Made by a program: the position numbers and the translations under genes. Shown piece by piece: positions 39,001-50,103 of a stretch of DNA of 64,000 bases; the stretch's first letter is position 1; each line of letters starts with the position of its first letter. This DNA is from an uncultured Verrucomicrobiae bacterium. Its GTDB lineage: Bacteria > Verrucomicrobiota > Verrucomicrobiia > Limisphaerales > Palsa-1400. The notes below the pieces were generated by a model, which saw only the letters and a program-made list of their open reading frames with translations, did not search any database and was not told the origin of the DNA. The stretch covers positions 3,456,001 through 3,520,000 of the forward strand of contig OY969763.1 of the NCBI GenBank assembly GCA_963702845.1, written 5' to 3'.

Positions 39001-39018
39001 GTTCTGCAAGAGACGACT

Positions 39019-41559
39019 CTACCGCACAAAGGTCGCTTTGACTCGTCGCGAATTCTGCATGTAACTGCCCCAAAGCAACGCACCGAGAAAAATCGCAACA
39101 GGATTCGTGTATGTCTTCGCATCTCCTCCTTTGATCATGTGCACCAATCCCGCGTCAATGGCCACTCCGATCGCTTGCACGGTCAGAAAAAGAATAAACA
39201 ACGTTGGAAACAACCGCCGCTTTTTAAAAAACAATATTAACAGGAACACCGCGAAAATGCTCATGCCCAAATTAAAGAGCAGGTCAAAAATCAACGTCGG
39301 CGCCCACAGCGAATTGTAATCAGTTGAGCCCGGCATTGTCAGCGCTTGCCACGATGCCAGCGAATAAACCGGCCACGATTTTGCGACCGCTCCAAGTTTG
39401 GCGAATATTCCCATGATGAGCAGGAAGCAAAGCACCGCCAGCCACCCACCAAGTCCCTCCAGGTGTTTGTCTGTCTCTACGGCCATCAATGGCGGAGCCG
39501 CGGGCTGATACCGGCAAGCAAAGACTCCGCCGACCAAAACCAACGACGAAAAGCAAAAACCAATCCCGATGATCGCCCAGTTTGGATCGTTCGACACCAA
39601 TGACGCTATCGGTTTCGTAACAGTAAACGCCGCGTCATCGGTCACCTGATTTACAGCGCGTTTATACGCTCCAACTTTCGCAGCCGGCACCGTGTCGGTG
39701 AAAGTGCGATACTTGAACACCAATGTCGTGCGCGTAACCGAATCGGTGACGTCACTCGTAAAATCAAAAAACTCATTCCTGATTTCTTTCCGGTCCGGTT
39801 TGATTCGCCACTTGGCCGGGTGATTGATCTCAATCGTGTGCTCTCTGTTCGCAGGATGATACATCGCATACGGTGAACTGCGCGTTTCACTCACCGGCGC
39901 CCCGAGCAGGTCGCGTATCGTACGCGGCGAAAAAGAACACGATTTGCGCTCGTCACGACCCTCCACCCAAATATTCGGTATTCGATAGTTCTCCTCCGTA
40001 TCGACTGTATTCGCCCGTTCATCGTCATAAATCTTCACGCTACCGACCATTTCGATCCCGGCGTAGGCAGAGGCGTAGTAATTCAGATAACTTTTCTCCA
40101 ACTCCGCTTGTGAGACATTCGCCACTGCTCGCCGCAAACCATCCGCGTCCAACCCGCTCGTCCGCGACTTGACCTTCAAGTAGGTCATTCCATTTGTTCC
40201 GACAATCGAGAAGCTCTCCGTCACCGTCATGTGCGGAACGCCAGTCTGCATCGGCTCAATCCGCACCAACTGCGTCGCTTCCGGATCGACCACCAGCCCA
40301 AACCGATAATCTGGAAAATAACGGTCCTTCAATCCGCCGCGTTGTTGACTGATCGTTGGGTCCACATAGTAAGTTTTTTCACCAACCACCAACTGAACCA
40401 CGACATGGTTGAACGCGAACGGTGACGGCTGCCAATCTTCAATGCTGCGTCGCGCGTAACTATTCACCAGCACCGGTTTTGCCACGACACCGAGTTCGCG
40501 CAACATCGTGCACAACAAAAATGCCTTGTCCTTGCAATCGCCGAAGCGTCGCGCGAACACCGTCGATGGATCCGACGGTTCATGCGAATGCGGGCCAAAC
40601 TCGATTCCCATGTAACGAATCTGGTCCTGCACAAATTGAACCGCCGCAGTCGCCCGCACCTCTGCCTGCTTATTGAGCCCCCACAATCGCATGCTGTTTT
40701 GCAGCTCGGGCGACAGCTCGTTTTTCGAAACGTAAAGCTTGCACGCCCACCGCGCGACCTCTGCCCAATTTGCATATTCGGTCACGTTGATTTGCGGATG
40801 CGTTTCGTACCAAATCGGCGTTCCTGGCTCCGCCGCGAGGGCTGGAACGTTCGACCATTTCCAAACATATTCCGTTTCGTCATCCGTCCGCGTGACGGTC
40901 GGCTGCACAACCGTGCCCCGGTTCTGGATCGTAATCCGTCGTGATGACGGGCAGACCAGGCGATAGCGCTGATTTTGCACCGGCACCTGCCACTGAACGT
41001 ACCAGGCGTTCGCAAACCGGTTTTCAAGAATCGGATTCGTTCCTTTAACCGTGTAGCTGAAATCGATCAGGTCTCCCGGACGCACATCTTCCAGCAAACA
41101 AATCGCCGACCAACTTCCGTTGTAAATGTTTCGATCAAGATCCTTTTCCTGCTGAATGAGCTTGAACTTCTTTTCATCCATTTGACTCACCGCGTTGGTG
41201 CCGCGGATCACCCAAACACTGTGAATGATCAATTCCTGATAGGTCGGATCGAAATCGAACGAGAGTTGCGAGCCGTGTTCCACTCCCGTTTCGTTCAATA
41301 CCTGCCGGCAAATTCGCGTGTAGATTTCGCCTGTTCCAATATTTTCCTGCGAGTCGAGTAATAGAAATGCCTGACCCGACGATTCGTTCTTGTGCAGCGG
41401 CAACCTGTCGATGTGGTTCGTAAAAAGACGAACCCAGTCGGACTCAGGACCGAAGTTACATTTGGATTTCGGTTTCTCTTGCGCCGCAACCGGCATCACA
41501 TGAACCAAAACCAGCACTGCTATAAAAAATGCGACCACCCGTCGCGTTGTTTGGACCAT
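39019..41559 (-). CDS. DUF3857 + transglutaminase-like domain protein with C-terminal DUF2569 membrane domain
   Basis: DVRPGDLIDFSY, FVQDQIRY, RRFGDCKDKA, FNHVVV, YYVDPT (C-H-D triad); GLGGWL, TMs and SRRVKATFVR. Confidence 0.88.
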   Translation of the reverse strand: MVQTTRRVVAFFIAVLVLVHVMPVAAQEKPKSKCNFGPESDWVRLFTNHIDRLPLHKNESSGQAFLLLDSQENIGTGEIYTRICRQVLNETGVEHGSQLSFDFDPTYQELIIHSVWVIRGTNAVSQMDEKKFKLIQQEKDLDRNIYNGSWSAICLLEDVRPGDLIDFSYTVKGTNPILENRFANAWYVQWQVPVQNQRYRLVCPSSRRITIQNRGTVVQPTVTRTDDETEYVWKWSNVPALAAEPGTPIWYETHPQINVTEYANWAEVARWACKLYVSKNELSPELQNSMRLWGLNKQAEVRATAAVQFVQDQIRYMGIEFGPHSHEPSDPSTVFARRFGDCKDKAFLLCTMLRELGVVAKPVLVNSYARRSIEDWQPSPFAFNHVVVQLVVGEKTYYVDPTISQQRGGLKDRYFPDYRFGLVVDPEATQLVRIEPMQTGVPHMTVTESFSIVGTNGMTYLKVKSRTSGLDADGLRRAVANVSQAELEKSYLNYYASAYAGIEMVGSVKIYDDERANTVDTEENYRIPNIWVEGRDERKSCSFSPRTIRDLLGAPVSETRSSPYAMYHPANREHTIEINHPAKWRIKPDRKEIRNEFFDFTSDVTDSVTRTTLVFKYRTFTDTVPAAKVGAYKRAVNQVTDDAAFTVTKPIASLVSNDPNWAIIGIGFCFSSLVLVGGVFACRYQPAAPPLMAVETDKHLEGLGGWLAVLCFLLIMGIFAKLGAVAKSWPVYSLASWQALTMPGSTDYNSLWAPTLIFDLLFNLGMSIFAVFLLILFFKKRRLFPTLFILFLTVQAIGVAIDAGLVHMIKGGDAKTYTNPVAIFLGALLWGSYMQNSRRVKATFVR

Positions 41560-41615
41560 GAACCGAATTGTGTCCGATGCACGATAAAACGAAAAGCGTT
41601 TTCACTTGGACAACG

Positions 41616-41668
41616 TTCGGATTGCGGGTTGCGAGGACGACGTTCGGCCTCGCAACCCGCAATCCGAA
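41616..41668. terminator. Perfect 21-bp inverted repeat directly after the terminase stop codon (terminator-like)
   Basis: ttcggattgcgggttgcgagg-N11-cctcgcaacccgcaatccgaa. Confidence 0.7.
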
Positions 41669-41670
41669 AA

Positions 41671-43134
41671 TCAACACACGTGAGCACTCGGCCCTGAGCG
41701 CAGCGTCTTTGCCGCATACAACGCCAGGGCCAGTGCCCAAAAACGATCCGCATGACCGTTCTCGCTCCGACCCGCGCTAAAACGGATGTTGCCGCTCGCC
41801 GTGATTTCTTTGCGCACACTGCGCAGGTCGGCGCGAATTACGTTTTCATTTGGAGTACGAATGGTTCGCTGCTCGAATGCGGTGCGCAATGGGTAAGCGA
41901 GTTCTTCCTTCATCTCGGCCGTGAACGTCACCGGCCCGACGCGCCATTGGGTGTAGCGCTTCAAGGCGCGTTCGGCGAATTGGCGGCCGATCCCGGTATT
42001 GTCGATGCAAACGCGTTTGACGCGGTTCCATTGCATGAGCGCGTCGAGGCCGGCTTCCTGCGACTCGAAGGTTTCCTTCTCCATCGTTTCGACCAGACGT
42101 GTGTAATAGACGTCGCCCATTTTTTCGAGGAGCCACATGACCGACAAATCTTTTTCGCGCCCGATGTCCATGCCGAGAAACCAATCGTTCTGCGATTTGT
42201 TGATCATGTCTTGCGACAGTTCCCACTTGTCTTCCGGCGGGTATTCGCAACTGGCGATCAAATCATGTGGCAAAAACGCGGTGCGAATGTCGCTCGCGAC
42301 GCACATATATTCCTGCTGGAAAAATTGTTCGTCCGGACATTGGCTCCGCTGATAATTGAAATAATCCGCCTCATCCATTTCCTGCACCGGATCCTCTTCC
42401 GGCGAATGCAATTGAATCTTGTAGAGCAACCCTTGATCGAGCGCGTCTTGGAATGTCGTTTTATGGAAACTGAATTTCTTCGGATTCCCGCCATGGACAA
42501 TTTCTTCAACGAGGTCGTTGAAATACGTGTCGCGCCCGCGTTGCGTCGAAATAATTTCCAACTTGCTCCCGCCCCACATCGTGCCGGGAAAAGCGACTCC
42601 ATAAAGTTCGCGCGCGTGCGGATGCGTTGCGAACTCATCCAAAATACGATCACCCGTTTTACCCGCCTGCGCGTTGACGCTCGAGCTCATCGAAAAAATC
42701 CGGCACCCATTCGCGAACCGCAGCACATACGCCGTATGCCCCTCGTCATCGATAACCCTGAGCCCTTCCTTCTCCGCGTAAACCTGGATCCTCTGCGCAT
42801 ACGCGTAGCAACCTTCGAGAAACATACGGGCCTGCCCTTCATTGCTGCTGCACACCCATCCGTCGGTCGTACAACCCGCCAGGCTCTTGCGTTCCACCAA
42901 CGACATTTGCGACGATTTGCTCCCGCCGATCTGGCGCGACTTCAGCCAAAGCTTCAGCCGGCTATAATCGTCGATCCAACCGCGCTGATACGGCAGCGAG
43001 ATTCTTTCTTCCGGGATAATTTTAGCCCGCCCAATGTGACGGCTCGGCACGATGATCTTTGCCGGTTCCGGCAAAATCAATCCGTTCTCTGCTTTCAAAA
43101 CTCCACTCTCTGCGTTCAAAACTGTTGCATTCAT
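41671..43134 (-). CDS. Phage terminase large subunit (Mu gp28-like)
   Basis: Walker A KSRQIGGS, Walker B RILDEFA, IISTQRG, FFQQEYMC, nuclease FLGMDIGREKDLS, IDNTGIG, HADRFWALALA; intact 487 aa. Confidence 0.92.
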   Translation of the reverse strand: MNATVLNAESGVLKAENGLILPEPAKIIVPSRHIGRAKIIPEERISLPYQRGWIDDYSRLKLWLKSRQIGGSKSSQMSLVERKSLAGCTTDGWVCSSNEGQARMFLEGCYAYAQRIQVYAEKEGLRVIDDEGHTAYVLRFANGCRIFSMSSSVNAQAGKTGDRILDEFATHPHARELYGVAFPGTMWGGSKLEIISTQRGRDTYFNDLVEEIVHGGNPKKFSFHKTTFQDALDQGLLYKIQLHSPEEDPVQEMDEADYFNYQRSQCPDEQFFQQEYMCVASDIRTAFLPHDLIASCEYPPEDKWELSQDMINKSQNDWFLGMDIGREKDLSVMWLLEKMGDVYYTRLVETMEKETFESQEAGLDALMQWNRVKRVCIDNTGIGRQFAERALKRYTQWRVGPVTFTAEMKEELAYPLRTAFEQRTIRTPNENVIRADLRSVRKEITASGNIRFSAGRSENGHADRFWALALALYAAKTLRSGPSAHVC

Positions 43135-43172
43135 AAAAATTCATATTCCTTTCATCAAATAAACAAAACTTC

Positions 43173-43259
43173 GTAGCAGCCGACGTCAGGAGGCTCTAAT
43201 TTCCCTTCATTTCGGCAACACGCCGAAACAAGTCAGAGCCCCCTGACGTCGATCGCTAC
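43173..43259. repeat. REPIN-like inverted pair of GTAG REPs between the two terminase genes
   Basis: gtagcagccgacgtcaggaggctc...gagccccctgacgtcgatcgctac, imperfect inverted repeat with GTAG/CTAC ends. Confidence 0.65.
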
Positions 43260-43322
43260 CCAACTCGATTCCAACCCCCCACCCTCTTCTTCCTCATGCG
43301 AGGCCGACGTTCGGCTTCGGCC

Positions 43323-43988
43323 TTAGATCCTCATATCCCGTTTAATCCGTTCCAATTCCTCGCGCGTGATCCCGCCCCTCTGGTTCTGCTTCGACGTCGT
43401 AGTCTTCTTCGCGCGCTCCAGCGCCCGATACCGTTTCAACTCCAGCTCCGCATGCTGCGTAAACACCTCGTTCCGCAACTGCGAATTCACCGCTCGCACC
43501 AACCGGAAAAACATCCCCGGCTCCTTCTTCGCCGCCGCGAGCAACTTCTCCCCATCAAACCGTTCCAACACATCATTCAACTGCTCCGCGACCACCACAT
43601 GATTCATCAGCGCGAACCCGCTCTTCCCCCGCATCCGCCGCACCTCCTTCGCCAAATCCCCGGCCTTCTCCCGTCGTTCCACGCGCCGCTCCTTCCGCAG
43701 CACCCAATCCTGGAACCCTGTTTTCCCCCAACGCGACAACGACGACTCCGAAACCTCAAATCCCGATTTCTTAAGTTCCGCCCCGATATCCTTTAAAAGC
43801 GCCCCATCCTCAAACCGCCGATTCACCATTTCCCTCACCTTCAGCGGCAACCGCGCGACCTTGCTGACACTCCGCCTCCGCCCCGGCAAAACCGCCTCCA
43901 CGACTGGCGGCAACACCGCAATAATTTCGCTACCATCACGTGCCCCTTCTGCGACGGACAACGGACTACTAACAACTGACTCATTCAT
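43323..43988 (-). CDS. DUF3486 / Mu gp27-like small terminase subunit homologue
   Basis: SKVARLPLKVREMVN...GFEVSESSLSRW HTH, C-terminal GGITREELERIKRDM; lies directly upstream of the gp28-like terL; RBS GAAAGGTGA. Confidence 0.75.
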   Translation of the reverse strand: MNESVVSSPLSVAEGARDGSEIIAVLPPVVEAVLPGRRRSVSKVARLPLKVREMVNRRFEDGALLKDIGAELKKSGFEVSESSLSRWGKTGFQDWVLRKERRVERREKAGDLAKEVRRMRGKSGFALMNHVVVAEQLNDVLERFDGEKLLAAAKKEPGMFFRLVRAVNSQLRNEVFTQHAELELKRYRALERAKKTTTSKQNQRGGITREELERIKRDMRI

Positions 43989-44065
43989 AAAATCACCTTT
44001 CGTTCTCTCAAATCTCCAATTTCAAACTTCAGACTTTGTAATCTGTAATTTGTAATTACTTGCCG

Positions 44066-44094
44066 ATTGTGACATGTAGCCGCGTTTCAGTCAA
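44066..44094 (-). promoter_or_regulatory. Sigma70-type promoter for the terminase pair
   Basis: Minus strand TTGACT-N17-CACAAT with TGn extended -10; three AGGGAAA repeats just upstream at 44102, 44111, 44120. Confidence 0.55.
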
Positions 44095-44272
44095 AAAATG
44101 TAGGGAAACCAGGGAAAGGAGGGAAAGAAATGATATTTTTATTTGGAAAAAAATGGTGATTTTAGAGGATTGGCATGGAAGTTGATTGAGCTCTGGCGAG
44201 GTAAAGGGGGAAGTAGAAAAACATCATTGTTTGAAAAGTCATGAAGTAAGTAATTGACACTGCAACGCTCCT

Positions 44273-44975
44273 GAATCCCAACGGGATTTAAATCACTCAG
44301 CCCAGGGTTGCGAGGAACGAGCTACCCTGGGTTACGATGCAAACCAATGACCTCAACGCTGAAAGCGTTGAATCAAATGATTGATTGTACACCGTCACAA
44401 ACATCATCGTATTCTTATGTCGCAATCATTGGCGAAAATCCTCGTCCACGGCGCTTTTCCACAAAAGAACGCCGTCCCTTTCTGCGGGAAAAACCATTGC
44501 GTGACGAGTTGCACCACTACATAGGCGGCATTCTCGGAAACCTCGACTGCGTTCCGATCATCACCGGCGGCGTGGAAGACCACGTTCATTTTTTATGCGC
44601 ACTATCGCGCACGGCGCAACCTGCGGAAGTGGTCAAAGAGATCAAACGCGGTTCCTCTTTGTGGATCAAAACCAAATCTAACGACCTCCGGGATTTTGCA
44701 TGGCAAAGCGGTTACGGCATGTTTTCGATTGGATATTCCCAAATCGAATCCGCACGCAAATACATCGGCAACCAGGAAGAACATCACCGAAACATTTCGT
44801 TCCAGGACGAATTGCGCGAAATATTGAAACGGTACGACGTGCAATTCGATGAACGGTATGTTTGGGATTGAACATTTGATTCAACGCTTTCAGCGTTGAA
44901 TAAATTATTGTCCACTAACCCAGGGTAGCTCGTCCCTCGCAACCTTGGGCTGAGTGACTACAATCGCTTCGCGAT
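44273..44975 (+). mobile_element. IS200-like / REP-associated tyrosine transposase element with inverted multi-hairpin flanks
   Basis: A ~100-bp unit (cccagggttgcgaggaacgagctaccctggg + caacgctgaaagcgttg) at 44273-44375 and inverted at 44874-44975 flanks a tnpA. Confidence 0.8.
44417..44871 (+). CDS. tnpA: IS200/IS605-family (Y1 HUH) transposase, frameshift near 44452
   Basis: MSQSLAKILVH / FSTKERRPFL, EDHVHFL (HUH), FAWQSGYGMFS, KYIGNQEEHH (catalytic Y), FDERYVWD; no tnpB. Confidence 0.88.
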
Positions 44976-45043
44976 AAAAGCCCACTGATTGCAACCACCA
45001 ACGATTTCCAAAGGACTCCGCAGATCGACGTGTAACCTCCAAC

Positions 45044-45210
45044 GAATCCCAAAGGGATTCCATCACTTAGCCCAGGGTTGCGAGGAACGAGCTACCCTGG
45101 GTCACAGCCAAATAAATCAATTCAACGCTGAAAGCGTTGCATCGAATCATTGATTGTTACACGTATGCCAACACCAATGTATTGGCGTGTCGCAATCATT
45201 GGACATTCCT
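45044..45210 (+). repeat. Third copy of the element left end, including the first codons of tnpA
   Basis: Same hairpins as 44273-44375 followed by gtgtcgcaatcattgg, matching the tnpA start atgtcgcaatcattgg. Confidence 0.8.
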
Positions 45211-45300
45211 AAACTGCCCGCCACCAGCATACCATCCCTGCCTGCTTGCGGTTGACTGTCCACCTATAGATGTCCAGCATTAATCAACACGCGGCTAAAC

Positions 45301-45360
45301 TTGAACGTCGGCGAATATGTTAAAATCGGGGCAAAACAACTTCATAATCAGTGGTTAGCC
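45301..45360 (+). promoter_or_regulatory. Candidate cassette promoter (TGn-TAAAAT) and attI-like insertion site ending in GTTAGCC
   Basis: TGtTAAAAT at 45318-45326; GTTAGCC at 45354-45360 is the exact complement of the downstream attC R'' GGCTAAC. Confidence 0.5.
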
Positions 45361-45374
45361 GCTACGCGCAACGC

Positions 45375-45785
45375 ATGGAGATTATCGAATATACTGTGGC
45401 TGAGTTTCATGGTCCGGACGGCCAGTGTCGTGGCACTGTTGCGGATTTGATGCTCGATGCACACATGATTCCGCGGTGCGGTTTTATTCCACCGTTTCGC
45501 GTTGTTGCCGCCGTCATTCGTTCAGGAGGTTCGCGTGGCGGCATGAGCCCCGGCTGTGTCTGGCAGCCATTCGAGTTGAGCGAGGACGACTATTATCAGG
45601 CGGTTGCTCGCCTTGAGGGATTTACGCCTGTTGATCTCAAAGGTCGGCATCGCGACCCGCACATCACGGGCGAGATTCAACCGGATTATGCTGCATCTGA
45701 CACGGATGATTACCGAGTTTGGATTGACTCGTTAGTGCAGAGGGGGCATTTGCCAGGCGGCCCATTTCGAGAGGTGAGACGATGA
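45375..45785 (+). CDS. Integron cassette hypothetical protein (136 aa)
   Basis: ORF fills the space between GTTAGCC and the attC; contains GGMSPGCVWQPFELSEDDY. Confidence 0.75.
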   Translation: MEIIEYTVAEFHGPDGQCRGTVADLMLDAHMIPRCGFIPPFRVVAAVIRSGGSRGGMSPGCVWQPFELSEDDYYQAVARLEGFTPVDLKGRHRDPHITGEIQPDYAASDTDDYRVWIDSLVQRGHLPGGPFREVRR

Positions 45786-45792
45786 CGAGGTG

Positions 45793-45891
45793 GGCTAACA
45801 AATCGCTGCAGGCAACGCGAGATGACCGCTTCAGGTCCGCTTCGCGGTTCACGCCGAGTAGTCCCGCGCGCCTGAGCTCTGAACGTTATGC
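45793..45891 (+). other. Integron attC recombination site (99 bp)
   Basis: R'' GGCTAAC, 5-nt spacer, L'' GCTGCAGG ... L' CCTGAGC (one extra base on the L'' side), spacer, R' GTTATGC; imperfect palindromic arms. Confidence 0.85.
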
Positions 45892-46322
45892 CTGAAAGTC
45901 GAATGCTGTCGGAGCGATTCCGAGAATTGCGGGGGCGTGCGGGCCTCACCATAGAAGAGGCGTCGGCAAGGATGAACGTTTCGCCGTTCCACATCGAAAC
46001 CACAGACGATGACTTTACTATCAGCTATTCTCCTGCCGACGTGCGGCGATTCTGCAAGGTCTTAGCTGCGACGCCATGCGAACTTTTCGGGGTAATTATT
46101 GCTGAGTCGCCCGTTTCGGCTCAAGAGCTGGTGTCACGTATCAATGAAGAGTGTCTCAAGCGTGGTGTCACCCTTGAGCAGTTCGAGGATGTCGTGGGCT
46201 GGCCACTGAGTCACTGCATGGACCCTCCTGAGCGACTGCTCGACCACATGACATTGGACGGACTTCAATGGCTGTGTCGCGAACTCGGCATTCACTGGCA
46301 CAGGGTTATCTTGAGCTTATGA
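45888..46322 (+). CDS. Integron cassette XRE-family HTH protein (two HTH-like repeats)
   Basis: RFRELRGRAGLTIEEASARMNVS and RINEECLKRGVTLEQFEDVVG; ATG lies inside the attC R' box. Confidence 0.75.
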   Translation: MPESRMLSERFRELRGRAGLTIEEASARMNVSPFHIETTDDDFTISYSPADVRRFCKVLAATPCELFGVIIAESPVSAQELVSRINEECLKRGVTLEQFEDVVGWPLSHCMDPPERLLDHMTLDGLQWLCRELGIHWHRVILSL

Positions 46323-46328
46323 CAACCG

Positions 46329-46400
46329 GGCATAAAAAACGTGCCGCACTCAATGCCGGGCATTCATCCCGTTTTGATTTCGACCTTCCACCCAGTTATA
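46329..46400 (+). other. Degenerate/truncated attC of cassette 2
   Basis: GGCATAAA 6 nt after the stop, one mismatch from GGCATAAC (the complement of the cassette start GTTATGCC); no clear right arm. Confidence 0.45.
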
Positions 46401-46408
46401 GTGTCTGT

Positions 46409-46619
46409 ATGAAGAGCTGGATTGTCGCCGACGCCGAACATCTGGGCGGAAGTCTGCGGGTGCGCGGCACGCGGCATTTCCGTCGCTTTGATCCTCGAGT
46501 GCTTGGCCGCCAACATGACCATTCCACAAATCGTGGAAGCCTATCCAAGCCTTACTGAAGGTGCCGTTCGCGGCGCCCTCGCTGAATTCGCCGAAAAACA
46601 AGAATCATTGTCTGTTTGA
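46409..46619 (+). CDS. DUF433 family protein (putative antitoxin), frameshift near 46474
   Basis: IVADAEHLGGSLRVRGTR / ISVALILECLAANMTIPQIVEAYPSLTEGAVRGAL. Confidence 0.85.
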
Positions 46620-46700
46620 GTCATTTCACCTCGCTTTCCGAACCGAACTCTTTGTGTTCTTTGCGATCTCTGCGGTTAAATAAAGTTCTTCACTGCATCT

Positions 46701-46729
46701 TTGACAAAGCCGCTACTTCATTCCATAAT
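46701..46729 (+). promoter_or_regulatory. Sigma70-type promoter
   Basis: TTGACA-N17-CATAAT. Confidence 0.6.
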
Positions 46730-47148
46730 CATGCGCTATGAAGACAAACAGGCAGACACAACAGAAAACAAAGCGGACGCACCGACCAGCACAACTGATC
46801 GCGTTCGCCTGCCTGCGTTTGCACCCTGTAGCCCCCGCCCCATCTGCTATTTGCTATTTGCCATTTGCTTTCCCCTGCCACCGCTCAATCCCGTCGAAAA
46901 AGTCAGCAAAAGTCACTTGCTGTCACCTACTGCCGGCTACTGCCACCAAAAAAATATTTTTTAAAAACACCCCAAAAACCCACTTTCCTCCACGCCCGCT
47001 TGCATTTCATCACATTATGAACGCTGTTTTTTGCCCCGTTTTTGCATGCTTTTCGCGCACCTTCACGACACTCACCTCCAGCGTTGAATCGCAATTCTCT
47101 CGATTGCTATTCGGTCGCCATTCCGATATTTCTTGCTCGACCGTCTCT

Positions 47149-48654
47149 ATGACTCGACCCAACAAAAGCGCGTTCGTCTTCACGTACTCTCTCGTCTTGC
47201 TCGTTTGCTCGGCAATCTTTCTACAGGCTGCAACGGAAACACCGCCGCCAATTCCACGCGAGTTTCGCGGGGTTTGGGTTGCGACGGTGGCGAACATTGA
47301 TTGGCCGCTTAAGAAAGGGCTTTCCACAGCCGAACAAAAAGCTGCCATGGTCAAGATCATGGATGAAGCCGTCGCGATGCATCTCAATGCGGTCGTTCTC
47401 CAGGTGCGCTCGCAATGCGACGCCATTTATAAATCGTCTCTTGAACCGTGGTCGCCGTCGCTCACCGGCAAGATGGGACAGGCACCCAGCCCCTATTACG
47501 ATCCGCTCGACTTCGCCATCGCCGAAGCGCACAAGCGCGGGCTTGAACTGCACGCCTGGTGCAATCCATTCCGCGCCGGCATCAAAGCGTATTGCAGCAA
47601 CGCGCCCGCATCGCACGTCACGCGCAAACATCCTGAGTTCACTTTGGATTACGGCAAAATGTATTGGCTCAACCCCAACGAGCCGGCCGCGCAGGATTAT
47701 TCTTACAAAGTCGTGATGGACATCGTCCACCGCTATGACGTCGACGGCATTCACTTCGATGATTATTTTTTCCCCTACAAAGAAGAGGACGCGAACAAGA
47801 AAGAGATGCCCTTCCCTGACGAGCCGACCTACCAGCGCTACGTCGCGCGCGGCGGTAAACTCGACAAAGCCAACTGGCGCCGCGCCAATGTCGACGCCTT
47901 CGTCAAACGCGTGCACGACGGCATCAAACAACAAAAGCCGTGGGTGAAATTCGGCATCGCGCCATTCGGCATTTGGAAAAACGGCGTGCCGGTTAAAGTC
48001 AAAGCGACCGATTCCTACGACACACTTTTTGCCGACGCCCGCAAATGGATGCTCAGCGGTTGGCTCGATTACACATCGCCGCAACTTTATTGGAGGGTCG
48101 ATTATCCCGAGCGCAGCTACGCCACCTTGCTGCATTGGTGGGCGCAACAAAACACGCTCCATCGCAATGTTTGGCCCGGCCTATACGATAGTGCGGTCAA
48201 CGAACCGGATAAGGAACTCGGAGGCGTAAAAATCACGACGAACGACATCGTCCGCCAGGTCCAGATCGCGCGTAACGAACCGGGCGTGTCCGGCACCATT
48301 CATTACAGCATGGTCGCTCTTGAAAAAAATCGCGGCGGCCTCAAAGAAGCGCTCGCCCCGCTCTACGCGCAACCGGCGCTCGTGCCCGCTTCACCGTGGC
48401 TTGGGTATTCCGCAGTCAAACAACCCAGCATCAAAATCAGTCATGGCGAACACATCACGGCCAAATGGAGCGGCGGCGGTCATGTCTGGCAATGGGCCGT
48501 GCAAAAGAAAATCAACGGCAACTGGATCACCGAAATTTTCCCGGGTTCACAAACTTCGTGCGTTGTGAAGGAACCGGCCACAGCGATTGCCGTGACCGCG
48601 ATCGATCGCGTCGGGAACGCGAGCCAACCCGCAATCATTAAAAGCAATCAATGA
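47149..48654 (+). CDS. Glycoside hydrolase-like family 10 (GHL10/DUF187, YddW-like)
   Basis: REFRGVWVATVANIDWP, YDPLDFAIAEAHKRGLELHAWCNPFR, RYDVDGIHFDDYF, PQLYW; signal peptide from ATG 47149. Confidence 0.9.
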   Translation: MTRPNKSAFVFTYSLVLLVCSAIFLQAATETPPPIPREFRGVWVATVANIDWPLKKGLSTAEQKAAMVKIMDEAVAMHLNAVVLQVRSQCDAIYKSSLEPWSPSLTGKMGQAPSPYYDPLDFAIAEAHKRGLELHAWCNPFRAGIKAYCSNAPASHVTRKHPEFTLDYGKMYWLNPNEPAAQDYSYKVVMDIVHRYDVDGIHFDDYFFPYKEEDANKKEMPFPDEPTYQRYVARGGKLDKANWRRANVDAFVKRVHDGIKQQKPWVKFGIAPFGIWKNGVPVKVKATDSYDTLFADARKWMLSGWLDYTSPQLYWRVDYPERSYATLLHWWAQQNTLHRNVWPGLYDSAVNEPDKELGGVKITTNDIVRQVQIARNEPGVSGTIHYSMVALEKNRGGLKEALAPLYAQPALVPASPWLGYSAVKQPSIKISHGEHITAKWSGGGHVWQWAVQKKINGNWITEIFPGSQTSCVVKEPATAIAVTAIDRVGNASQPAIIKSNQ

Positions 48655-50103
48655 AACCCAGACTAATTTTAATAGCGCTGCTTGCGCTTACCGGATGTCA
48701 CACGCCGACGCTTCCGCCCCCACCGACGGTGCAACGCGAATTTCGCGCGATGTGGATTTGCACGGTCAACAACGCCGATTGGCCATCCAAGCGCACGCTC
48801 AGCACCGACGAGCAGAAAAAAGAACTGACCGATATGCTCGATCGCGCCGCCGAGCTCAAATTCAACGCGGTCATTTTTCAGGTCCGTCCCTGTTGCGATG
48901 CGATTTACGATTCACCGATCGAACCATGGTCGCAATATCTCACCGGCAAAATCGGCCAGGCGCCCGAACCCTATTACGACCCGCTCACCTTTGCAGTTGA
49001 AGAGTCACACAAACGCGGTCTCGAACTGCACGCATGGTTTAATCCTTATCGTGTCGGCATCGGCAAACTCACCAACGAAGTTCCCGCCAAGCACGTCACA
49101 AAAACGCATCCCGAACTCGTGCACGTTTACGGCAAGCATCTCTGGCTTGATCCCGGCGAACCGGCCACGCGCGAATACTCGCTCAGTGTCATCAAAGACG
49201 TCGTCCATCGTTACGACGTCGACGGGATTCATTTCGATGACTACTTTTATCCGTACCAGGAAAAGACGAACAAAGACGACAAAGTTTACATTCCCTTTCC
49301 AGACGACGTTTCGTGGAAAAACTATCAAGAGCAACGGCGGCACACTTGGACGCGAAGATTGGCGTCGCGATAACGTGAACAAATTTGTTCAAGAATGCGC
49401 TAGCGCAATTAAGGCCGACAAACCCTGGGTCAAATTCGGCATCAGCCCATTTGGCATTTGGCAGCCCGGTTACCCCAAACAAATCAAAGGCCTCAATTCC
49501 TACGCATCATTGTATTGCGATTCGCGCATGTGGTTGAGCAACGGAATGGTCGATTACCTCAATCCGCAACTCTATTGGCGCATCGATAAAAAAGAACAAA
49601 GTTTCCCGGTGCTCCTGAAGTGGTGGACCGAACAAAATCCGCAAGGCCGACATCTTTGGCCGGGCATGATCGTCAAAGGCCCCACCGAACTGACAAACCA
49701 GATCGCCGTCACCCGCGCTCAACCTGGAACAACGGGCCACGTCATCTTTAAAGCCACCAGCGTGGTCAACAGCACCAATGGCGTCGACGCCGCTTTGGCG
49801 GAAGCTTACACAGTCCCTGCCCTCATCCCCACGACTCCCTGGCTCGGGACCAACACGCCAGCCGCCACCGAACTGTCGCTCAAACGCAAACGTTACGAAG
49901 TTAAACTCGCATGGAAACCGCTCGATGACGCCCGCTGGTGGCTGGTTCAGCAACAGCTCGGCTCGAATTGGACCACCGAAATTTTGCCCGGCTCCGAAAC
50001 CAATTACGTCATCAAAGCGACCAATTCCGCCGCGTTGCCCGAGCACGTTTATATTTCAGCCGTTAATCGCCTCGGCAACATTGGCGGTTACGCGGCGAAA
50101 TAA
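48651..50103 (+). CDS. Second GHL10/DUF187 hydrolase, lipoprotein (frameshift near 49330)
   Basis: Lipobox LALTGC; REFRAMWICTVNNADWP, YDVDGIHFDDYFYPY; continues DWRRDNVN...FGISPFGIW...PQLYW in the next frame. Confidence 0.88.

Follow-up and report, generated by a model that had tools for sequence, protein, structure and literature searches.

What are two phage terminase genes doing in a bacterial chromosome with no other phage gene near them? The question is raised by a stretch of 64,000 nucleotides from an uncultured Verrucomicrobiae bacterium of the Limisphaerales (positions 3,456,001 to 3,520,000 of contig OY969763.1; the whole stretch is called the window below), which carries a small and a large terminase gene, terS and terL, as a lone pair. 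It had been proposed from the sequence that the pair is domesticated and not decaying, and that it might belong to a dispersed system resembling a gene transfer agent (GTA). Our analysis supports this original prediction in part. The reading that we favour, with a probability of about 0.45, is that the pair is one cassette of a domesticated, dispersed, GTA-like DNA-packaging regulon. The motor motifs are intact and have been under long-term selection without adjacent phage genes, at a synonymous divergence like that of host genes and with orthologues that are equally bare. A promoter-like sequence, motif A, is common to the window cassette and every unit of a syntenic head-gene block elsewhere in the chromosome, and the cassettes have expanded in copy number, with turnover of sites.

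The terminase pair and its orthologues

Both genes are intact, as had been predicted. The terS-like gene (43323..43988, minus strand) encodes 221 residues and resembles Mu gp27/DUF3486, while terL (41671..43134, minus strand) encodes a B3/Mu-gp28-type large terminase of 487 residues with Terminase_6N and 6C domains and not a single stop or frameshift. The predicted ribosome-binding sites are visible as AAAGGTG, 5 nt ahead of terS, and AAAGGA, 13 nt ahead of terL. The Walker A region of TerL reads KSRQIGGS, which we take to be a deviant Walker A, and its counterpart in phage B3 is KSRQIGLS; Walker B is RILDE. The nuclease residues Asp323, Asp378 and Asp463 are invariant across 17 aligned TerL and, in a profile alignment, match the aspartates of solved TerL nuclease domains. 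The description of the pair as Mu-type holds as far as the gp27/gp28 type goes, but the nearest characterised TerLs are those of the transposable phage B3 (50.8% identity) and the Sinorhizobium phages Aussie and StopSmel, all at about 50%. The KSRQIG motif and the order of terS and terL are shared with B3. In B3, however, terS, terL and portal abut or overlap, whereas here the two genes are separated by a 188-bp gap containing a repetitive extragenic palindromic (REP)-like repeat, the pair has its own promoter and no portal follows.

TerS matches the PHROG 426 terminase small subunit (E 2e-8), and its AlphaFold model resembles a DUF3486 phage protein (E 1.6e-3), with a low-confidence N-terminal tail, a helical domain of DNA-binding type and long helices in the predicted fold. 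It has no match in Pfam, nor in the PDB by Foldseek at E≤0.001, and neither TerS nor TerL matched in NCBIfam; a TerS paralogue from the same genome scored 27.9 bits against PF11985 (Mu gp27), just under the cut-off of 28. The window holds 42 other open reading frames and, as had been claimed, at E≤1e-5 none of them falls into a portal, head or tail family of tailed phages or into a MuA/B family; the sole notable matches are to a secretin, to an exonuclease, to a pilin and to kinases. The pair is not accompanied by MuA, MuB and Gam with a portal directly 3′ of terL, as in a Mu/B3 prophage, nor by the integrase, attachment (att) sites or replication module in cis that mark the phage-inducible chromosomal islands (PICIs), among them the Staphylococcus aureus pathogenicity islands (SaPIs). 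No relative of the pair was found in viral contigs searched with a single protein or with alignment A3, and a scan of genome contigs gave none.

Seven TerL orthologues at 67–77% identity form a distinct group, after which identity drops to 56%; the seven-protein clade has a support of 100 and a long stem, and the window protein is one row of a nine-row 'KSRQIGGS' clade. The two orthologues with genomic context, L108 and L109, are bare terS–terL pairs lying among host genes, with differing neighbours, while most of the other 78 metagenome TerL loci with enough flank have a portal or protease match. Against L108 and L109 the window terL has ratios of nonsynonymous to synonymous substitution (dN/dS) of 0.148 and 0.158 at dS of 1.28 and 1.55; host genes on the same contigs have dS of 0.90–1.37 (L108, three clear orthologues) and 1.43–2.10 (L109, seven genes). 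Within the clade dN/dS is 0.15–0.19 with dS like that of host genes (Nei–Gojobori). The original prediction was to fall if the closest homologues lay in complete prophages, if the locus was strain-specific with dN/dS near 1 or if the contig was misassembled at the hairpin. None of these conditions held: both of the closest homologues for which context is available are bare, dN/dS is close to 0.15, and the arrangement recurs in kin. The locus is nevertheless lineage-variable, with an empty site in the congener G001, which had not been foreseen.

A promoter-like motif in common with a distant head block

Upstream of terS lies motif A (44066..44141, minus strand), in which an A-rich box is followed by three direct repeats of 9 bp (TTTCCCTnn), then by TTGAC and a hexamer resembling a −10 element. 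The hexamers of the promoter originally proposed, TTGACT-N17-CACAAT, are present at 44094–44066, but alone this pattern is no more frequent than chance (1 found against 1.2 expected) and it counts only as part of the longer motif. The source genome, a single contig of 6.03 Mb and 89.8% complete, contains 31 sites scoring above 24 with a weight matrix, with a clean gap to background and one extra marginal site at the contig end. TTGAC is present in 27 of the 31, after the A-rich box and three repeats, and the two repeat 16-mers that were tested are confined to motif-A sites. A TTGGCATG box (44170..44177, plus strand) lies upstream of many of the copies and is present in kin.

Eight of the 31 sites head phage-derived units. 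These are the bare terS–terL pairs in the window, at 2.597 Mb and at 4.753 Mb, a solo terS at 1.811 Mb, and units for protease–capsid, connector–portal–terL, holin-like genes–terS and a DnaB/primase fusion. At eight further sites the leader is that of the solo terS at 1.811 Mb, and another site retains a 5′ stub of terS. The protease–capsid, connector–portal–terL and holin-like–terS units, with the DnaB/primase fusion nearby, form an HK97-type head block 1.7 Mb from the window pair. The search for portal and capsid genes that had been suggested thus finds them elsewhere in the genome, with one HK97-type protease, capsid and connector each and two portals. Exactly one PF05065 capsid is present in each of the source genome, G001 and G002, a count that covers the HK97/PF05065 type only, as five elements of a second terminase family described below bring their own capsid genes. 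In L110, G001 and G002 the head block lies in synteny beside gcvH, with dN/dS of 0.11–0.20, and it is the only part of the ancestral element that survives in this genus; of synteny and purifying selection, both seen in GTAs, the head block shows both and the window pair only selection, its position not being conserved.

The motif has changed in other genomes. G002 has at least 12 variant sites, seven of them orthologous to sites in the source genome, and its repeat unit differs from that of the source genome and yet is uniform across its sites. L110 has the source-genome version and L109 a third one, while G001 (73% complete) has no site with the pattern. As the repeat unit is genome-specific, the exact motif is absent from 40 relatives. 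A uniform unit of its own in each genome is the pattern that co-evolution between a binding site and the protein bound there would be expected to give.

In the mechanism we propose, the system would have originated from a B3-like transposable prophage and the window pair would start packaging remotely on behalf of a tail-less head block elsewhere in the chromosome. One trans-acting factor would bind the three direct repeats and activate every motif-A unit at the same time, in the manner of phage late activators acting upstream of terS. TerS would bind DNA at or near its own cassette and TerL would cut and then pump the neighbouring chromosome into HK97-type heads, which might be home-made or come from an infecting B3-like phage, with tails borrowed or not needed. 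With many start points much of the chromosome could be packaged, as in lateral transduction or by a GTA. We infer co-activation via motif A, the start of packaging at the cassettes and the use of host or helper heads from sequence. Direct repeats upstream of terS are reported to bind the late activators Ltr and RinA (PMC3753634). The short direct repeats just upstream of the terS promoter are similar here, but the repeat block occurs in 31 genome-wide copies and its binder is putative.

A number of observations weigh against this reading. An intact phage gene is lacking at 23 of the 31 motif-A sites, where only leaders or stubs precede unrelated host genes, and gene conversion would be an alternative route to a homogeneous motif. 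The head-block terL has a TAG at codon 113 in the source genome (it is intact in L110 and G001), and the 'holin-like' label reflects position and hydrophobicity only, with no family match. No tail gene came to light in the source genome, which is 89.8% complete: there is no PF10145, no tail-type match to the late genes of relatives with 59 queries or 2328 frames, and a single weak match of 24% with a further 26 late-gene queries. No Mor/C-type activator was found there either. Across the family, 11 of 24 genomes are without a PF05065 capsid match while 23 of 24 have terS matches. The window TerS is only 31–37% identical to the TerS of L108 and L109, to which the solo terS at 1810 kb is closer (48–49%). 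In G001 hsp70 is joined straight to a GH10-like gene, without window positions 39,004–47,235, and 30 other family genomes yielded no member of the window TerL clade; the window copy is therefore dispensable or mobile.

Terminase copies across the genome and the family

Called self-contained at first, the pair is so within the window only, as it is a member of a large multi-copy family. The source genome holds eight B3/Mu-type terL loci (six intact, one with a TAG, one frameshifted), and two terS searches gave 13 and 15 matches, at about 14 loci. The terS–terL cassettes are duplicates of one TerL lineage spread across the chromosome. Six of the TerL, together with congener copies, L113, G007, P0009 and P0020, lie on one side of a branch with prophage-type TerL on the other, with SH-like approximate likelihood ratio (SH-aLRT) supports of 89 and 94 in two quick IQ-TREE trees with no bootstrap; the tree giving 89 left out 14 loci of a more distant TerL subfamily and metagenome loci with <1.5 kb downstream. 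Selection on the younger paralogues 2183, 2302 and 2758 is more relaxed (dN/dS 0.32–0.58). No homologues of the MuA, MuB, Gam, lipase or tail genes of relatives' elements were found in the source genome, a further difference from B3, and a MuB-family search gave AAA-type and helix-turn-helix (HTH) matches only. An HTH-like open reading frame of 123 residues occurs there in four copies that are 98–100% identical (877386, 812791, 1556891 and 2104811) and three diverged ones, and is likely another small mobile element.

Five terS paralogues of the source genome lie behind a different sequence, motif B, the palindrome CACTTGGACA-N5-TGTCCAAGTG (TGGACA-N5-TGTCCA). There are 28 copies in the source genome (control 0; examples at 4979324, 42051, 4589082, 1186239 and 124641), 18 in G002, 5 in G001 and 17 in G022, and at least one copy is present in 13 of 24 family genomes and in none of 16 others. 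In the source genome motif B precedes four WYL regulators (HTH-WYL-WCX), recA, ligA, mfd and imuB, with recA, ligA and imuB at least 0.5 kb downstream behind stub open reading frames, and its sites are a candidate WYL-controlled DNA-damage regulon as judged by the genes they precede. A family-wide host SOS box was not confirmed: 20 motif-B sites in relatives have no recA, WYL, ligA, imuB or mfd within 2.5 kb. The LexA DNA-binding matches in the source genome are frames of 147 and 168 residues. Beside one motif-B site is an HTH repressor-like gene (5223379–5223726), a candidate regulator whose homologues in G024 and G016 adjoin terminase loci.

Motif B also precedes two bare pairs and a solo terS of an unrelated terminase family, family II. 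The source genome has seven full terL of this family, five of them inside integrated elements (134606, 1715664, 2249040, 4296908 and 4828809; L358–L362, L365, L366). The elements carry portal, scaffold, capsid and adaptor genes with terS–terL, replication genes upstream and unrelated genes interspersed; integrases were confirmed in the two elements that were scanned, and the scanned genes showed no tail family. All five are candidate capsid-forming satellites. For one of the family-II bare pairs G002 has a syntenic counterpart at 91% identity, with dN/dS of 0.12.

Across the family TerL matches were found in 20 and terS matches in 23 of 24 genomes (1–32 terS each), compared with 3 of 16 genomes from other families for either protein. 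Their contexts are graded, from a whole transposable prophage in G012 through late-gene blocks in G008, G014, G016 and G034 to bare pairs. The G012 element (C4, ~317,000–352,000; L036/L261/L262) is apparently complete and includes an HK97-type head, with the core of motif B at the left end, so that the ancestral element, with MuA, MuB, Gam, terS–terL and HK97-type head, is found whole in a family member. No MuA, MuB or Gam is present in the fetched flanks of the four genomes' late-gene blocks. Those of G014 (L038/L258), G008 (L049/L259) and G016 (L039/L260), ~20–25 kb each with lipase, terminase, head and putative tail genes, are GTA candidates, and two of the three adjoin a resistance-nodulation-division (RND) efflux operon, like the head region of the source genome.

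Such a gradation, in which a lipase–terS–terL stage also occurs between late block and bare pair, could suggest that the pair is neutral debris of repeated prophage insertions with decay pending, as could the two broken terL among the eight loci, one further stub and the fact that most motif sites are remnants. This is unlikely and largely refuted. Debris would not be expected to keep dN/dS at about 0.15 over dS >1 while bare in three of three loci with context, its copies would be scattered among prophages where the paralogues cluster, and motif A would not have changed in concert. Nor would random deletion leave just these two genes intact again and again, and in two terminase families.

Many terS stand alone. 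The 40 terS loci fetched from six genomes have no terL or head match within ~3 kb, and most belong to bursts confined to one genus or genome, in which the promoters are shared and the 3′ ends ragged. Burst copies have 75–96% DNA identity and dN/dS of 0.18–0.40 in five genomes, which points to purifying selection. Their C-termini (L218–L257) run into REP-like repeats, and one pair gains a common extra C-terminal tail. The bursts would suit a selfish minimal satellite, in which a promoter with terS, with or without terL, is mobile, packaged from its own pac-like site into helper or resident heads and re-inserted by recombination, leaving ragged ends and promoter stubs, with selection acting on the element and not the host. 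Dozens of promoter-plus-stub remnants exist, filled and empty sites differ between congeners, four loci are common to G016 and G011 only in the downstream flank and one in both flanks, and the second terminase family reaches the same endpoint. However, the cassette has no integrase, transposase or replicon, and a search for terminal repeats and target duplications gave only ragged ends. A single one of seven Y1 transposase matches adjoins a terS–terL pair, and on this ground the transposase beside the window pair was rejected as a general mobiliser. The dS of the window terL is in line with host divergence, many motif sites are orthologous and old, and a promoter common to a fixed head block is not predicted. 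We regard a selfish satellite as doubtful and favour the packaging regulon over it; the two share the packaging step and differ in the beneficiary.

The excess of terS copies, which far exceed terL and capsid genes across the family, also bears on anti-phage interference, in which diverse TerS decoys would poison the terminase of an incoming B3-like phage or TerL would cut DNA abortively, motif A being a decoy late promoter tripped by a phage activator and motif B a DNA-damage trigger. TerS partners diverge fast, the island that holds the locus is variable and also contains HTH and DUF433 genes, and small terminases of satellites are discussed as interference genes (PMC9618062). None of six island proteins matched a PADLOC model, though, and this defence reading, which was among those first offered, gained no direct support. 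A pure decoy needs no capsid, portal or protease, and these are conserved under the same motif, while the motor motifs of TerL are fully intact. We consider interference improbable.

The island and comparison with known systems

The pair lies in an 8.2-kb island (39004..47235) of a DUF3857 gene, terL, terS, a Y1 transposase, HTH_31 and DUF433, where G001 has ~150 bp instead. The gap between terS and terL holds the REP-like inverted repeat (43173..43259), which has 22 further matches in the genome. Three nucleotides beyond the terL stop is the hairpin with perfect 21-bp arms noted originally (41616..41668, z −7.2); its arms are confirmed, and as 20–26-nt matches occur at seven other genome sites it is a member of a REP-like family. 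It was rejected as a bespoke terminator, being REP-like and absent from the terminator-scan list. A half site of motif B (41600..41612, plus strand) abuts it. No independent record spans the hairpin junction, which would leave room for an assembly artefact there, but this is hardly credible: the genome is a single contig, six 150-nt pieces, all from the same soil study, agree without a single difference with terS, terL and the terL start, and L108 and L109 show the same bare layout.

Next to terS is a transposase of the Y1 or REP-associated tyrosine transposase (RAYT) type (44308..44871, plus strand), flanked by inverted repeats at 44275–44334 and 44916–44975, and probably independent of the pair; three REP-type repeat copies lie within 44275–45202. 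A leader remnant akin to the motif-A elements at 5.02 and 5.60 Mb (~46860–47060) precedes the GH10-like gene at the right edge of the island. A second GH10-like gene (48651–50103) is apparently split into two frames (48651–49373 and 48898–50103) and may be a pseudogene or reflect a sequencing error.

GTAs such as RcGTA are vertically inherited, under purifying selection, spread over several loci and under common regulation. Like them, the packaging regulon that we favour has chromosomal head and packaging genes without genes for excision or transposition. It differs in having many terminase cassettes instead of one, in a B3-like origin and in that no tail or other delivery genes were found. 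Host-controlled co-expression may operate through the common motif A, and DNA transfer is putative. The terS of SaPIs and PICIs, with lateral transduction (PMC12409344), resembles ours in lying outside a phage, where it could set new chromosomal packaging starts. Satellite TerS, which can be SOS-induced, is reported to drive packaging of the chromosome from pac sites of its own (PMC12597102). Some of the paralogues here likewise lie behind a DNA-damage-type box, like the SOS-inducible operon I of SaPIs, but there are no integrase, att sites or replicon in cis, terL is present and the copies are many and dispersed. Capsid-forming PICIs (10.1101/2025.02.11.637232) are similar as tail-less sets of head and packaging genes; the genes of the window's family are scattered and without integrase, and the five family-II elements are the closer match.

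Few lineages are known to have GTAs, and the usual satellite has a single terS, carried within an island that also bears an integrase. No description of a system like the present one was found in the open-access literature, supplements aside. A broader and more tentative possibility, which we hold to be somewhat unlikely, is that in the Limisphaerales terminases have made a new class of chromosomal element, in which promoter–terS(–terL) cassettes multiply across the genome, come under two genome-wide regulons, one through the late-type repeats that also serve the tail-less head block and one through the DNA-damage-type palindrome that also precedes recA and WYL regulators, and act as dozens of packaging start points, giving a multi-origin, tail-borrowing form of gene transfer that also spreads itself. 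In a family of abundant soil bacteria, the amplification of terminase cassettes across the chromosome, the independent arrival of two terminase families at the bare state and promoter motifs that are genome-specific and co-evolving would together amount to a new way in which phages are domesticated and chromosomal genes transferred.

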